DNA of 64,000 nt from Myxococcales bacterium SG8_38 (lineage in GTDB: Bacteria > Myxococcota_A > Polyangia > Polyangiales > Houyiibacteriaceae). The stretch is from NCBI GenBank assembly GCA_001303415.1, contig LJTN01000018.1:108-64107 (forward strand), written 5' to 3'. A model generated the notes under the pieces. It was not told where the DNA came from. It did no database searches and saw only the letters and a program-made list of their open reading frames with translations. Made by a program: the position numbers and the translations under genes. Numbering within the stretch: the stretch's first letter is position 1; every line of letters starts with the position of its first letter. This document shows, piece by piece, positions 10,853 through 14,983 of this stretch.

Positions 10853-11737
10853 GTGCCCAAGGCCAAGCCCGATCGAGAGAACACTCGCCTCCGCACCGCG
10901 CTCGTCGGTGAGCTTGCGCTGAGGCTGGCCAATCAGGTCATCGAGGGATGTGCCGAGCGTGACGTCACATTGATGCCGTTGAAAGGCGTGCTCCTGCTGG
11001 GCAGGTGGCCTGCGTTGCGAGGGCGGCGGGGTCTGGTGGACATCGACCTCTTGGCACGCGCCTCGGATTTCGAGACGGTCACCGGCGTTCTGCGCGCGTT
11101 GGGTTTCGAGCCGACCGTGCAGTCGAGCGCGGGAAGCACGTTTTCGAGCGAAGCGTGGCCGCTCAGCATCGACCTACACCACGATCTCTTTCCGCACGCC
11201 CTCTTTCGAATGTCTACCGAGGGCGTCTTTTCGAGGGCAGAGCTCGACGCGTCGCTTTTTGCCGCACCGGTCGCACGCATGTCCGATGAAGATCTGCTCG
11301 CACATCTCATCGGCCACTTCGTCAAGGGGCGCGGCACCTTTCGTGAGGACACGAGCCTCGACGACATTCGATGGCTACTGGAGCAAGACCTCTTTCGGCT
11401 CGAGCGCGCAGGTGCATTGGCAGCTCATTTTCGGGAATTAGGTCTCAAGCGAGCCGCCGGGTACGTGCTCGGTCACGACTCGTTCCGAGATGAGCGCATC
11501 CCAAGCGCGGTGCTCGGCTCGCTTAGGCTCTCGCGGCTCGACCGCATCACGATCGCGATCGCGTATCTCGGCACGAAGTCAAACGGCGGCTCGCCTCGGT
11601 GGTGGACACCCCATCTGTTGGACCGCGGATTCCTCGCTGGGTCGCGCTCGCTTTTCACCCACGCGGACGAAGCGCGTCGCCGCTACATCGCAGCTCTTGC
11701 AGAAGGTGGGAAAAGCATGTCGCGTGCGGGCTCGTGA
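10853..11737 (+). CDS. Nucleotidyltransferase family protein (NTP_transf_5-like)
   Basis: MPLKGVLL, R...DIDLL, IDLHH, H..H and D..W motifs; convergent with the rSAM operon. Confidence 0.85.
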   Translation: MPKAKPDRENTRLRTALVGELALRLANQVIEGCAERDVTLMPLKGVLLLGRWPALRGRRGLVDIDLLARASDFETVTGVLRALGFEPTVQSSAGSTFSSEAWPLSIDLHHDLFPHALFRMSTEGVFSRAELDASLFAAPVARMSDEDLLAHLIGHFVKGRGTFREDTSLDDIRWLLEQDLFRLERAGALAAHFRELGLKRAAGYVLGHDSFRDERIPSAVLGSLRLSRLDRITIAIAYLGTKSNGGSPRWWTPHLLDRGFLAGSRSLFTHADEARRRYIAALAEGGKSMSRAGS

Positions 11738-11799
11738 CCGACTAGGAGCATGCCTCGCCGTCTCGGACGGCGTGCCATCCGTGAGTTGCATTCAGACGT

Positions 11800-12576
11800 T
11801 CATACGTTGGGGACGAATGTGGCGTAAGAAGTCGGCGACTGAAGCGACACGACGAGCTTTCGATTCAGTGCCTGCGCGTGCTCCGCGAGCTCTTCGGCCG
11901 TAGGTCGGGCCAAGAACCCGCCCCATGATGTGTAGCACAACTCGTTCGCCGCCGATGAGGTGCCTGGCTCGAAGATGCTCAAGAGGATTGGGCCCTCGGG
12001 TGCGATGCGGTCGCACGCACGAAGCAACTCCAGGCGATCCGCCCGCCGAAGCACGTGTCCGAAGCTCCCCCAGCCGAGCAGCACGGCGTCGAACCTCGCT
12101 TCGCGTCCGAGTCGCAGTCGCGTTCCCTTTTGCAGGAGCACCGCTTCAACGAGATCGTGGTAGCTCGCTTGGTCGATGAGCTCCGAGCCGAGAACGCGCT
12201 GGCCGATCCGAAACGCCGGCGTAGAGGGCTCGAAGGCATGAACTTGGTAGCCGAGCTTTCGAAGCGCAGCAGCTTCACGCCCGGAACCGGCTGCGCCGAT
12301 CAGGATGGATGCGGGCGGGGACGGCAAGCGTCGTGCGAACCATTGCGTCTCCCATGCATAGAGCCCGTCATGATCGTTTTCCCGCCGAAACGAGGCGTCG
12401 TATAGCTCGATTGAAAGCGCCTCCTTTTCGCTGTCGAGGAGCGCCCCCTTCAGGATGGCTCCGGTCCAGGCCTCCACCATGCGCTCCATCCCACGCAAGA
12501 CGGATTGAGCCTGGCGACTTCGCAAAGCCCAGCCTCGAAGCAATCGATATCGTACGCTGGGCCTTTTTCCGGTCAT
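11800..12576 (-). CDS. Class I SAM-dependent methyltransferase
   Basis: ILIGAAGSGRE (motif I variant), AFEPS, FDAVLLGWGSFGH; ATG 12576 overlaps the kinase stop (ATGA). Confidence 0.8.
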   Translation of the reverse strand: MTGKRPSVRYRLLRGWALRSRQAQSVLRGMERMVEAWTGAILKGALLDSEKEALSIELYDASFRRENDHDGLYAWETQWFARRLPSPPASILIGAAGSGREAAALRKLGYQVHAFEPSTPAFRIGQRVLGSELIDQASYHDLVEAVLLQKGTRLRLGREARFDAVLLGWGSFGHVLRRADRLELLRACDRIAPEGPILLSIFEPGTSSAANELCYTSWGGFLARPTAEELAEHAQALNRKLVVSLQSPTSYATFVPNV

Positions 12577-13397: not shown

Positions 13398-13678
13398 GCG
13401 ATCAGCTTCCGTTGCTCGAGCTGGCCGAGGAACGCGATCACGTCGCGAGTTACGGTCTCACGTTCCGCGTCGACGTATTTCAGAATCTCGGCGATGATCT
13501 CCTCGATGGATCGTTCGCCGTCGATCATCAACCAAATGCCTGCTGCGGTGTCGTTCAACACCAGCAATTGCGGGCTCTTCTCGTTGCCGTCGTAGATGAC
13601 GACCTCGTCGGTGTCGGTGACTTCGTGCGTCAGGGTGTCCCTGCGTTGAGGCACGCGTCGATCGGAAGCGTCAGGCAT
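13379..13678 (-). CDS. PqqD-family RiPP recognition element (stand-alone RRE)
   Basis: 99 aa; DEVVIYD..LVLNDTAAGIWLMIDGERSIEEI...DVIAFLGQL...LI. Confidence 0.93.
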   Translation of the reverse strand: MPDASDRRVPQRRDTLTHEVTDTDEVVIYDGNEKSPQLLVLNDTAAGIWLMIDGERSIEEIIAEILKYVDAERETVTRDVIAFLGQLEQRKLIAWKEAP

Positions 13679-14813
13679 GGCAGCTTCCTTCGAGCAGGGC
13701 GGATCGGGCTCGACACTCCCAACACGAAAGCTTGTCGCCCCATCGCGCGTCGGCCGAGAGCAGGCTTTTCTTCCGCGAGACTACCGGCTCTGCAGACGTG
13801 AGAATCGTTTCGAGGCGAGCCTCATGGATCGACCCAAGCAGCAGGTGCCGGCTGAAAATGCATGGGTACACCTTGCCGTCGTAGCTCACCGCTGCAGAGC
13901 CGCCGAAATCTCGTGGTTTGTCGCTCTCGACGCCCCCGGTCTGGATGCTGGCTGGCTGCGCGTCGCTTTCTTTGGGCATGGGGTGCCCGCGACCCACCTC
14001 GCGCATTCGATCAAAACGGATGGAGTCGTCCGCCACGCCGAGGCTCCGCAGATATTGGCCGGTCTTCGAACCATGGTGTTGGTTTTCCTTCATGGAGATG
14101 ACACCGACGCGGACGTTCAGACCATCCTCGACCGCACGGCGAATCGCACGCGAGGTGCGTGAATGGCTTCCCGGTGCCTGGGTGATCGCATCATGGGTTT
14201 GTGGGTCGTGCGAGTAAAAGGAAAACGCAAACGAAGGCGCGAGCTCGCGCAGCTGCTCGTACGTGCTTCCTCGAAGCGCAAGCCCATTTGTATAGATCTC
14301 GACCCGCGGGATTCCGAGCTCTCTCGCAAGCTCCACCGCTTGGATGCAATGGGGGCTGATGAGAGGGTCTCCACCGGTGAGCTGGACTAGGCCGAAGCCC
14401 AGCGCTTTCGCGTCTTCGAGCACCTCACGGATGTCCGCCCATGCGAGGGCCTCCGTACGGAGGGGCGACGATTCAGCATAACAATGCACGCATTGCTCGT
14501 TGCACTTCGCGGTGAGCTCGACGAAAAGCTGTCTCCATCCCGAGCCACGCAACACGGTTGCTCGGGTGAGTGGTTGCAACGCCTGCTCCTCCAGCCGTGT
14601 CCGGAGTTGCCCCACCAAAGGCTCGAACCGCGCGAGCGCCTCCCAAACCGATGCCGATAGCCGGCCCTTCGATGCACCGAGCTCGGTCCAGCCTTCGATT
14701 CGGATCTGCTCCGCGCTGCTCAGCTTGATGGCTTCGAGCAATCCCTCGCTCTCCCAGAGAATCCAATCGTTTGGCAAGAAGTAGCCGGTCTTCTGCCGCT
14801 CCATCGGTTTCAT
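13671..14813 (-). CDS. Radical SAM peptide maturase with a degenerate SPASM/twitch-like C-terminal domain
   Basis: ELTAKCNEQCVHCY (CxxxCxxC), LTGGDP, TNG, DGKVYPCIFS..LGSI, CWEC. Probable start ATG 14813 overlaps the precursor stop TGA (ATGA). Confidence 0.92.
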   Translation of the reverse strand: MKPMERQKTGYFLPNDWILWESEGLLEAIKLSSAEQIRIEGWTELGASKGRLSASVWEALARFEPLVGQLRTRLEEQALQPLTRATVLRGSGWRQLFVELTAKCNEQCVHCYAESSPLRTEALAWADIREVLEDAKALGFGLVQLTGGDPLISPHCIQAVELARELGIPRVEIYTNGLALRGSTYEQLRELAPSFAFSFYSHDPQTHDAITQAPGSHSRTSRAIRRAVEDGLNVRVGVISMKENQHHGSKTGQYLRSLGVADDSIRFDRMREVGRGHPMPKESDAQPASIQTGGVESDKPRDFGGSAAVSYDGKVYPCIFSRHLLLGSIHEARLETILTSAEPVVSRKKSLLSADARWGDKLSCWECRARSALLEGSCHA

Positions 14814-14983
14814 CCACCGAGGGGCATGCAGGTCAACGGGTTGCAGCCGTTGGGATTGCAGACCCCTGGCATGCACGTCGACGGGCTGCACGACGCTTGC
14901 GCATGCGCCTTGTTCAGGGTGATCGTCGCGAGAACGGCGGGTGCCGTATACGCTGCAGCCTTTAGAAAGTGCCGCCGCGCTGT
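14810..14983 (-). CDS. Putative RiPP precursor peptide: twin-arginine leader plus (C-x-P-x-x)5 core; no canonical start codon in this sequence
   Basis: Manual translation: TARRHFLKAAAYTAPAVLATITLNKAHA-QASCSPSTCMPGVCNPNGCNPLTCMPLGG*. The stop overlaps the rSAM ATG. An in-frame TAA lies at 14986-14984. Confidence 0.78.
   Translation of the reverse strand, partial: TARRHFLKAAAYTAPAVLATITLNKAHAQASCSPSTCMPGVCNPNGCNPLTCMPLGG

Follow-up and report, generated by a model that had tools for sequence, protein, structure and literature searches.

The stretch analysed here (the window, 64,000 nucleotides of contig LJTN01000018.1 from Myxococcales bacterium SG8_38) carries a conserved and uncharacterised gene cluster that probably makes a small, cysteine-rich, exported peptide, modified by a radical S-adenosylmethionine (SAM) enzyme and phosphorylated (Table 1). 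Its interpretation as a system for a peptide made by ribosomes and modified after translation (RiPP) is well supported, and the specific chemistry is proposed by analogy with related enzymes. A preliminary description of this DNA had called the locus a candidate RiPP system, and a RiPP-type maturation operon is borne out by a short precursor, a discrete PqqD-type RiPP recognition element (RRE), a radical SAM protein, an HprK-like protein and an NTP_transf_5 nucleotidyltransferase. The minus-strand genes are chained by overlaps, as had been described: the junction sequences give a shared ATGA for the precursor and radical SAM genes, an 8-nt overlap of the radical SAM and PqqD genes (ATGCCTGA), a 19-nt overlap of the PqqD and kinase-like genes, and a second shared ATGA for the kinase-like and methyltransferase genes. 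The PqqD gene is translationally coupled to both the radical SAM gene and the kinase-like gene. The convergent NTP_transf_5-like gene had also been placed correctly, its stop being separated from that of the methyltransferase gene by 62 nt (11738-11799) and its product matching PF14907. Pfam and NCBIfam scans of the six window genes agree with the reported absence of a lasso cyclase and a protease from the cluster, and no SipW-like peptidase, MsbA-like exporter, macrolactam cyclase or B2 peptidase was found among these genes.

The precursor frame, which was absent from the program-made list of open reading frames (ORFs), translates to 57 residues beginning with T-A-R-R-H-F-L-K. It continues through Y-T-A-P-A-V (a YxxPxV motif) and A-H-A-Q-A into a core of S-C-S-P and four more CxP units, giving five cysteines at a spacing of five with x-Pro after each. 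Searching 5.8 billion proteins with a full-length relative yielded 37 clusters, all annotated as "hypothetical protein" and all originating from Myxococcales or Deltaproteobacteria metagenome-assembled genomes (MAGs). A profile built from 30 diverse precursors (alignment A3) matched 315 representatives, clustered at 50% identity, at E<=1e-3 among 1.84 billion, with 130 at E<=1e-10, and no NCBIfam model matches the precursor. Within the 30 aligned sequences the RR pair, Y12, P15, C37 and P39 (the Cys and Pro of the second CxP) are invariant, and L7, S31, C32 and P34 (the Ser-Cys-x-Pro of the first unit), C42 and C47 are nearly so. The best 149 short profile matches contain RR (148/149), YxxPx[hydrophobic] (142/149), the leader motif [Y/W]xxPx[LVIAF] (145/149), [ST]CxP (147/149) and at least two CxP units (149/149), counts that are partly circular because the same profile selected the sequences. 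Between their hydrophobic stretch and first CxP, 146 of 178 precursors have an A-x-A, and a conserved Ser/Thr follows the last A-x-A by no more than five residues in 131/147.

Downstream of this conserved region the peptides diverge, with core sequences that are hypervariable among close relatives, rich in Cys and, in the window's genus, also rich in Met. Zetaproteobacteria precursors share a leader (R-R-R-L-L-K-L-G-A-Y-V-P-P-A-I-L-G) and differ in their cores, which include a G-S-C-x-P-S-A-C-x-P-C type with a long Lys-rich tail and an A-C-C-P-C type, some units being no longer than C-x-P-C. Pairs of precursor genes that agree in their leader and differ in their cores stand in tandem in Zetaproteobacteria at L041 (5951-6340 and 6446-6799), and further tandem pairs are present at L051 (5805-6113 and 6323-6610) and L053 (5692-5997 and 6208-6609). 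In one of the L053 cores a long low-complexity spacer of the (N-Q-G) type separates the signal-like region from a G-S-C-K-P motif. About 25 of the 178 precursors (e.g., P0043, P0054, P0066, P0090, P0108, P0123 and P0132) carry (Q/E)-(A/G)-G-C-(Q/A)-P in place of A-x-A-Q, as do precursors at loci L052, L054, L057 and L060. These variants may be lipidated forms, or the motif may simply be the first CxP unit; the lipobox reading was set aside, as the Cys itself opens a CxP unit and Leu at position -3 is mostly absent. One long protein, P0145 (3296 aa), has nine stretches that resemble the core section of the precursor profile and is probably an unrelated Cys/Pro-rich repeat protein.

The claim that this frame is a precursor stood as regards its Tat-like RR leader and its five CxP units at a spacing of five; what it lacks in the window is a start codon. 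An in-frame TAA (14986-14984) directly precedes the first codon, ACA at 14983, and the earliest in-frame ATG, GTG or TTG is that of Met38, within the core. In relatives the full gene has 65-75 codons and a leader of the form M...(E/D)-L-D-R-A-R-R-H-F-L-K..., and DNA alignment with these relatives shows the window to be short of about 51 columns, in which the relatives have their ribosome-binding site, start codon and some 13 codons; of the peptide gene itself, the start codon and about 9 N-terminal codons are lacking in this assembly. Four marine-sediment metagenome runs from three studies contain 60-96% of the sampled words of this stretch. A 4379-nt Logan contig from one of them (X1) is mismatch-free to 14600-14981 and to 14980-15400 with 46 letters between the two matching pieces, which amounts to an insertion of 48 nt, or 16 codons, in frame. 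The contigs of the other runs (X2, X3 and X4) stop matching at 14980 and share the same loose-end sequence, and no contig of the four runs supports the window's junction at 14980/14981.

On the minus strand, the 30 printed letters of the insertion translate in the precursor frame to ...R-K-N-D-V-G-E. Val is encoded here by a GTG that follows a Shine-Dalgarno-like GAGGAAG at a distance of six bases, and this codon corresponds to the start that gene callers chose for two relatives, P0019 and P0037 (M-G-E-P/T-N-E-L-D-R-A-R-R). This GTG within the missing 48 nt is the probable start of the precursor gene. Two other routes to a start are unnecessary given the insertion in the contigs: initiation at an in-frame ATG, 15 codons upstream, with read-through of the TAA, and initiation at a GTG near 15001 with a frameshift.

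The gene is intact in the source population because the metagenome contigs carry the 48 extra in-frame bases, and the truncated form seen in the window either arose in assembly or is a rare variant. We regard it as very unlikely that the cluster is instead dead in its host organism, with the precursor a 5'-truncated pseudogene. A missing start with a stop directly upstream is what such a remnant would look like, and the organism's own genome (92% complete) holds no second precursor copy; none of its other three matches goes below E 0.086, and in one there are two TGA codons. Weighing against decay, the runs that carry the extra bases are otherwise exact matches, none of the five enzyme genes is damaged, and the core is only one residue off that of a genome whose radical SAM protein is only 73% identical.

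The radical SAM alignment was scanned against 185,579 species genomes and gave 80 loci, of which 31 were tallied as orthologous; these come from Myxococcota, Zetaproteobacteria and other MAGs. Left out of the tally were L031 (a 3.6-kb contig ending inside the cluster), L034 (on the same contig as L020), L043, L047 and L063 (radical SAM gene cut by a contig end), and L064, L065 and L067-L108 (radical SAM protein no more than about 36% identical, and this over part of its length), a group analysed on its own. The HprK-like and PqqD genes are each present in 31/31 loci, NTP_transf_5 in 25/31 and the methyltransferase in 5/31; the hidden Markov models (HMMs) used to score presence were built from the same 31 loci, so that presence there is by construction for clustered members. 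Pfam confirmed NTP_transf_5 at L044 (Zetaproteobacteria) and L060 (Myxococcota). Most of the 31 loci have a precursor with the same leader next to the radical SAM gene, at times two in tandem. These counts define the conserved unit as precursor, radical SAM enzyme, PqqD, P-loop protein and nucleotidyltransferase. The methyltransferase, which the preliminary description had included in the system, is present in the window, yet it is a local addition: a lineage-specific accessory tailoring gene confined to the window's genus and a few relatives.

The 38 loci at E<=1e-40 all come from MAGs and are labelled Myxococcales, Polyangiales, Sandaracinaceae, Kofleriaceae, Polyangiaceae, "Proteobacteria" or Zetaproteobacteria/Mariprofundaceae/Ghiorsea. 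Distribution is patchy, because orthologues of the radical SAM gene occur in only 15 of 41 related genomes (own included) and 10 of 24 same-genus genomes (own excluded). Eight same-genus genomes (L017-L024) hold all six genes in the same order. The peptide gene lies upstream of the radical SAM gene in 10/10 same-genus loci read (L002-L011), and in L012 it lies downstream instead (L025). Homologous radical SAM neighbourhoods were thus found to contain both similar peptides and a co-conserved gene set, the two features whose absence would have told against the preliminary description. The genes flanking the cluster differ between phyla, and neighbour clustering of the loci, with clusters partly annotated by Pfam, revealed no protease or transporter that recurs across both phyla. 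The feature is far beyond chance, as many genomes carry the peptide together with its gene set.

A similar gene arrangement extends to more distant loci (L064-L108 except L066). Here 28/44 radical SAM loci, mostly from Acidobacteriota with some Methylomirabilota/Rokubacteria and a Thermomonas, have HprK-like and PqqD genes directly upstream of the radical SAM gene, and 11 of the 28 also have NTP_transf_5. At one distant locus (L088, 4501-8335) the radical SAM gene is followed by a 56-aa ORF that has Y-V-K-P-E-C-V-S-E-P around the middle, with two Cys further on; the P-loop protein there scores 43.8 bits against ScmC (cut-off 125) and the PqqD protein 44.4 bits against ScmD (cut-off 100). Two same-genus loci without the window-type radical SAM gene, L110 (G023:C9:172000-178200) and L111 (G020:C12:18000-24000), match window positions 10149-15677 and have the same pair of flanking genes, which stand about 3.9-4.0 kb from each other and enclose a different cassette. 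This cassette comprises NTP_transf_5, another radical SAM/SPASM protein (354 aa), PqqD, a P-loop HprK/PEPCK-like protein and a 158-aa ORF of unknown function, and a candidate precursor just downstream of the radical SAM gene contains two Cys, ends in Ser-Ser and lacks RR, its leader motif reading Y-E-P-P-R-I-V. The candidate peptides of L088, L110 and L111 make up a Y-x-x-P-x-[IC]-V-x-E-P type, distinct from the Tat/CxP type. Alternative RiPP cassettes seem to have a hot spot at this site. In addition, one MAG (G016, about 5% contamination) holds two complete six-gene clusters with different cores, L019 on contig C65 and L020 on contig C140, which reflects either paralogy or a strain mixture.

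The precursor leader has the features of a twin-arginine translocation (Tat) signal, namely RR-x-[FL]-L-[KR], then a stretch of mild hydrophobicity, and A-x-A with a basic residue ahead of the cleavage region. The window's leader, A-R-R-H-F-L-K ... A-H-A-Q-A, is consensus-like in these respects, and its own genome encodes TatC (PF00902, 210.7 bits, contig C61). Two observations weigh against Tat export. Curated Tat models stay below cut-off on seven full-length precursors (TIGR01409 12-14.3 vs 16.7; PF10518 12.5-13.3 vs 22.7), and because of this export by Tat is an inferred step. In addition, the leader is conserved nearly residue for residue, far more than ordinary signal peptides, and carries the RRE motif YxxP that ordinary Tat signals do not need, so it could serve as an RRE leader only.

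A leader that merely looks like a Tat signal would be read purely by the RRE and the enzymes, with removal by an unlinked protease and a peptide that stays intracellular or leaves by another route. The placement of YxxPx[ILV] in the middle of the "hydrophobic region" is as expected for RRE binding, and other RiPP leaders are described, in the part of the literature covered here, as mimicking protein families, for example the nitrile hydratase-like leaders. We nevertheless consider this reading unlikely. The RR pair is invariant and A-x-A is widely kept while the surrounding residues vary across phyla, and RRE binding needs neither element; the neighbour clustering offers no recurrent protease or exporter that would do the work instead, the genome has TatC, and LPP leaders, discussed below, are also removed by an enzyme of the signal peptidase I type. 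The dual leader, acting as both Tat signal and RRE-binding sequence, is the reading carried forward here.

The radical SAM enzyme matches Radical_SAM (PF04055, 6e-18) and SPASM (PF13186, 5e-6; 27.2 bits vs cut-off 21.5) and has an N-terminal beta-strand/helix domain at about residues 9-89. The CX3CX2C motif (C104/C108/C111) is invariant, and C318, C364 and C367 are invariant in 31/31 orthologues; a fourth C-terminal Cys is present in 21/31 and absent from the window's genus. The three invariant C-terminal cysteines suggest one auxiliary cluster in a truncated (twitch-like) SPASM domain and not a full SPASM pair. Fold comparison of the AlphaFold model (pLDDT 76) placed RiPP maturases as the best matches. 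The first is SkfB (PDB 6efn; Foldseek 2e-12; VIA Z 22.9 over 293 residues, the N-terminal domain included, 24% identity), which aligns with nearly the whole protein and has a single auxiliary cluster in a twitch-type C-terminal domain, compared with the 3-4 conserved C-terminal Cys here. SuiB (VIA Z 21.8), BlsE (21.4), CteB (18.6), anSME 4k38 (18.3) and EpeE (18.1) follow.

By analogy with these maturases, thioether formation from the CxP cysteines is the most likely single reaction for this enzyme, with a confidence just short of even. What points to thioethers is the fold class and the richness of the cores in Cys, and several results pull the other way. Sequence similarity to SkfB is marginal (phmmer 1e-6), and the curated sactipeptide-maturase models score far below cut-off (StsB 59.6/625, AlbA 48.3/850, SkfB (TIGR04403) 39.9/300), with ScmF as joint best NCBIfam match at 71.5 bits (cut-off 400). 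SuiB and BlsE are nearly tied with SkfB by fold, and the substrates of SkfB and of the present enzyme are unrelated.

A radical SAM enzyme that works in the same system without cross-linking, converting Cys to formylglycine as anSME does or making another non-bridging change such as EpeE-type epimerisation, is the main rival reading, which we hold to be unlikely. The Pro two positions after each Cys is the most conserved feature of the core, and CxP forms the first three positions of C-x-P-x-R, the anSME substrate motif; both anSME and EpeE are among the fold matches, and the C-x-P-C units leave scant room for an acceptor residue inside the unit. On the other hand, there is no conserved Arg at +4, anSME has a full SPASM domain with two auxiliary clusters compared with the few C-terminal Cys here, and anSME is not among the best 25 of 50 NCBIfam matches of the window protein. 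Thioether-forming SkfB comes first by fold, yet only about 1-4 Z units ahead, which is not decisive.

The PqqD protein is a clear family member (PF05402, 3e-16; 60 bits vs the Pfam cut-off of 23.4) that matches lasso PqqD models weakly and ScmD at 24.3 bits (cut-off 100). Judging from the leader motif, it would bind the precursor through YxxPx[ILV]; a complex prediction from the PqqD alignment (A2) and A3, run without controls, speaks neither for nor against binding (score 0.30, mark 0.32).

The HprK-like protein has a Walker A motif, G-P-S-G-A-G-K-S, followed by S-D-E, and at least 28 of 31 orthologues retain its H101, G116, S118, G121, K122, E140 and R154. It is a probable peptide Ser/Thr kinase, an assignment drawn from its P-loop. 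The scores weigh against this assignment: TIGR04352 reaches 3e-12 and 46.3 bits (58.9 in the L045 protein) against a cut-off of 200, PF07475 reaches 9e-4 and 19 bits against 33, a sequence search of the PDB gave a P-loop match to HPr kinase 1jb1 alone (E 0.14), and no match to ScmC was found at E<=0.01. TIGR04353, the PqqD relative of the HPr-rel-A system (NCBIfam TIGR04352/TIGR04353), matches at 22.6 bits (L041) against 35, so that kinase A and PqqD relative both fall short of the cut-offs of that system. The candidate phosphorylation site is the nearly invariant Ser/Thr before the first Cys, by analogy with the LPP kinase described below.

The nucleotidyltransferase matches PF14907 firmly (5e-21; 75.8 bits vs cut-off 31.2) and has a motif of G45, R59 and D63-x-D65, with D63 and D65 invariant in 21/21 aligned homologues. 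A PDB sequence search with this protein returned nothing significant (best E 0.38), and a literature search on NTP_transf_5/PF14907 found only a phosphonate paper. The methyltransferase gives weak matches only (daptide_MTase 1e-6, 28 bits vs 175; PDB 3g2m, E 0.009), and its translation shows a GxGxG-type motif.

In the known systems nearest to this set, LPPs of Bacillota, an RRE, an HprK kinase and an NTP transferase form a module that lacks a lasso cyclase (Popov et al. 2026, PMC13381572). According to the main text of that report, [Y/W]xxPx[LVI] is the leader motif bound by discrete lasso and LPP RREs, the LPP kinase puts several phosphates on core Ser3, leader cleavage is poor without the kinase, and the leader is removed by an enzyme of the signal peptidase I type (PMC13381572). 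LPPs and paeninodins are reported there as restricted to Bacillota, and the main text mentions neither radical SAM, Proteobacteria, Myxococcota nor twin-arginine (PMC13381572). For pseudomycoidin, PsmK is described as phosphorylating the lasso peptide and PsmN as attaching a hexose to the phosphoserine, in the part of PMC9266682 that covers them.

The present cluster shares with the LPP/paeninodin-type systems, as far as their published accounts go, the discrete PqqD-type RRE, a putative kinase of the HprK-like P-loop type, the NTP transferase, the [Y/W]xxPx[LVI] leader and a Ser near the core N-terminus as candidate phosphorylation site (Ser3 in LppA). With LPPs it further shares the lack of a macrolactam cyclase and leader removal of the signal peptidase I type, which here is suggested by A-x-A. 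LppN and PsmN, the nucleotidyltransferases of these systems, we take to be members of PF14907. There are also differences. A radical SAM enzyme is invariable here and goes unmentioned in the main text of the LPP report; the leader has twin arginines and an A-x-A site and the cores have CxP repeats; the sequence similarity of the kinase is confined to the P-loop region; the hosts are Myxococcota and Zetaproteobacteria in contrast to Bacillota; and the SipW-like peptidase and MsbA-like exporter described for LPPs are both absent from the cluster.

A second point of comparison is the SynChlorMet cassette (TIGR04248-TIGR04251), reportedly defined by comparative genomics only, which likewise is said to combine a P-loop protein (ScmC) and a PqqD relative (ScmD) with radical SAM/SPASM proteins (ScmE, ScmF). 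Scores against its models are far below the cut-offs (ScmF 400, ScmD 100, ScmC 125), for the window proteins with a match as for the homologous Acidobacteriota cassettes, and there is no precursor match. No description of a pathway with HprK-like, PqqD and radical SAM proteins was found in the openly licensed PMC and bioRxiv literature, nor any paper on SynChlorMet; a 2014 genome-mining survey is the one paper there that mentions HPr kinase along with radical SAM and RiPPs. In the same literature no natural RiPP with a Tat leader was found, the papers that mention both subjects being either unrelated or concerned with engineered Tat display of lanthipeptides. The preliminary description had stated that no characterised pathway with this combination was known, and none was indeed found; the combination is less isolated than claimed, because the LPP module is known in Bacillota and HprK-like/PqqD/radical SAM cassettes, SynChlorMet-like, are widespread. 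What is new is that known modules (RRE, HprK-like kinase, NTP transferase and radical SAM enzyme) are joined with a leader resembling a working Tat signal.

Taken as a whole, from the gene set, co-conservation, motifs and fold classes, we consider it rather probable that the operon makes an exported RiPP by the following scheme. An intact precursor of about 65-70 aa would carry a leader that is Tat signal peptide and RRE-binding leader at once. In the cytoplasm PqqD, perhaps together with the N-terminal domain of the radical SAM enzyme, would hold the leader while that enzyme, SkfB-like with one auxiliary cluster, acts on the CxP units, most likely forming intramolecular thioether cross-links. 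The HprK-like protein would (poly)phosphorylate the Ser/Thr before the first Cys, near the mature N-terminus, in parallel to the action of LppK on Ser3, and the NTP_transf_5 enzyme would then add a sugar or nucleotide to the phosphate, as proposed for PsmN. In the window's genus the methyltransferase would add a further mark. The finished peptide would exit via Tat and a general signal peptidase would cut after A-x-A, which would explain a cluster without protease or transporter.

Some findings count against parts of this scheme. The nucleotidyltransferase gene was not found within about 5-6 kb in 6/31 loci (2 of them cut by contig ends), and no activity of LppN was seen in the LPP study, according to its main text (PMC13381572). 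A paeninodin-type C-terminal target is inapplicable because the C-terminal residue of the precursors is not conserved (Gly in 52/147, Ser in 11/147).

A product with a role other than that of a natural product would go through the same maturation, and the two readings differ in what the peptide is for. It could be a Tat-exported periplasmic metal-binding or redox peptide, matured as a cofactor or subunit in the way of QhpC by QhpD. The Cys-rich and, in the window's genus, Met-rich cores would suit such a function, as would the hosts (marine-sediment Myxococcota and iron-oxidising Zetaproteobacteria) and the long Lys-rich tails of Zetaproteobacteria cores. No partner protein is conserved beside the cluster, however, and hypervariability of cores between close relatives is typical of RiPPs, so we hold this role to be quite unlikely and prefer an exported RiPP natural product.

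A bolder extension of the scheme, put forward tentatively and with somewhat less than even confidence, is that the cluster represents the first natural RiPP class with a working Tat-signal leader and a branch of a large "HprK-like/ScmC + PqqD + radical SAM (+ NTP_transf_5)" superfamily in which phosphorylation is obligatory. If this is true, a single 30-residue segment would be read in turn by the PqqD RRE (YxxP), the Tat translocase (RR) and the signal peptidase (A-x-A), and a cross-linked, phospho-decorated peptide would be exported fully modified without a dedicated protease or transporter. The superfamily would span Myxococcota, Zetaproteobacteria, Acidobacteriota and Methylomirabilota, and maturation in it would depend on the phosphorylation that the P-loop protein carries out, which would not be a late decoration.

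Table 1. Features of the gene cluster, with positions in the window
Feature	Position	Strand	Basis
Precursor peptide gene, 3' part: 57 codons + stop	14810-14983	minus	translation, intact homologues
Assembly junction without the 48 nt (16 codons, in frame) present in metagenome contigs	14980-14981		
Radical SAM peptide maturase, 380 aa, ATG at 14813	13671-14813	minus	Pfam, fold
Discrete PqqD-family RiPP recognition element, 99 aa	13379-13678	minus	PF05402
HprK-like P-loop protein (probable peptide Ser/Thr kinase), 274 aa	12573-13397	minus	P-loop, TIGR04352
Class I SAM-dependent methyltransferase-like protein, 258 aa, ATG at 12576	11800-12576	minus	weak matches
NTP_transf_5 (Pol-beta-type) nucleotidyltransferase, 294 aa, convergent	10853-11737	plus	PF14907

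Scans of 11600-15400 for regulatory signals gave 0 promoter-like sites and 5 terminator-like sites compared with 3.1 +/- 1.9 expected, nothing of which was usable. The gap between the convergent stops contains a 7-bp GC-rich inverted repeat, CGCCGTC-TCG-GACGGCG (11756-11772), which lacks a T-run and was not called by the terminator scan. Between the RRM-protein gene and the precursor lies a non-coding stretch of about 60 nt (~15085-15150, minus strand) that is conserved in L002, L005, L006 and L007; it starts with TCAGCCGCCGACAG and contains CGGTTGTCAACAAGTATTTT. Judged from a spurious translated frame, it is also kept in G023, which has the other cassette. This stretch may be a promoter/operator or the 3' end of the RRM gene, and the sigma-70 scan found nothing.

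Finally, the cluster joins two lines that have so far been separate, the radical SAM peptide maturases and an RRE/HprK-kinase/NTP-transferase module characterised so far in Bacillota only. The link between radical SAM enzyme and kinase is ancient and widespread, a kinase-like protein being present in all of the orthologous loci and in 28 of the 44 more distant ones. The precursor provides a concrete substrate for learning the function of NTP_transf_5 enzymes, which is unsettled even in the LPP study as far as its main text goes. If the leader works as a Tat signal, it would be a simple natural way of exporting a RiPP and freeing it of its leader, one that could be borrowed for the secretion of modified peptides. 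Sediment bacteria that are uncultured, together with iron oxidisers, supply hundreds of hypervariable Cys-rich cores, which represent untapped peptide structures.

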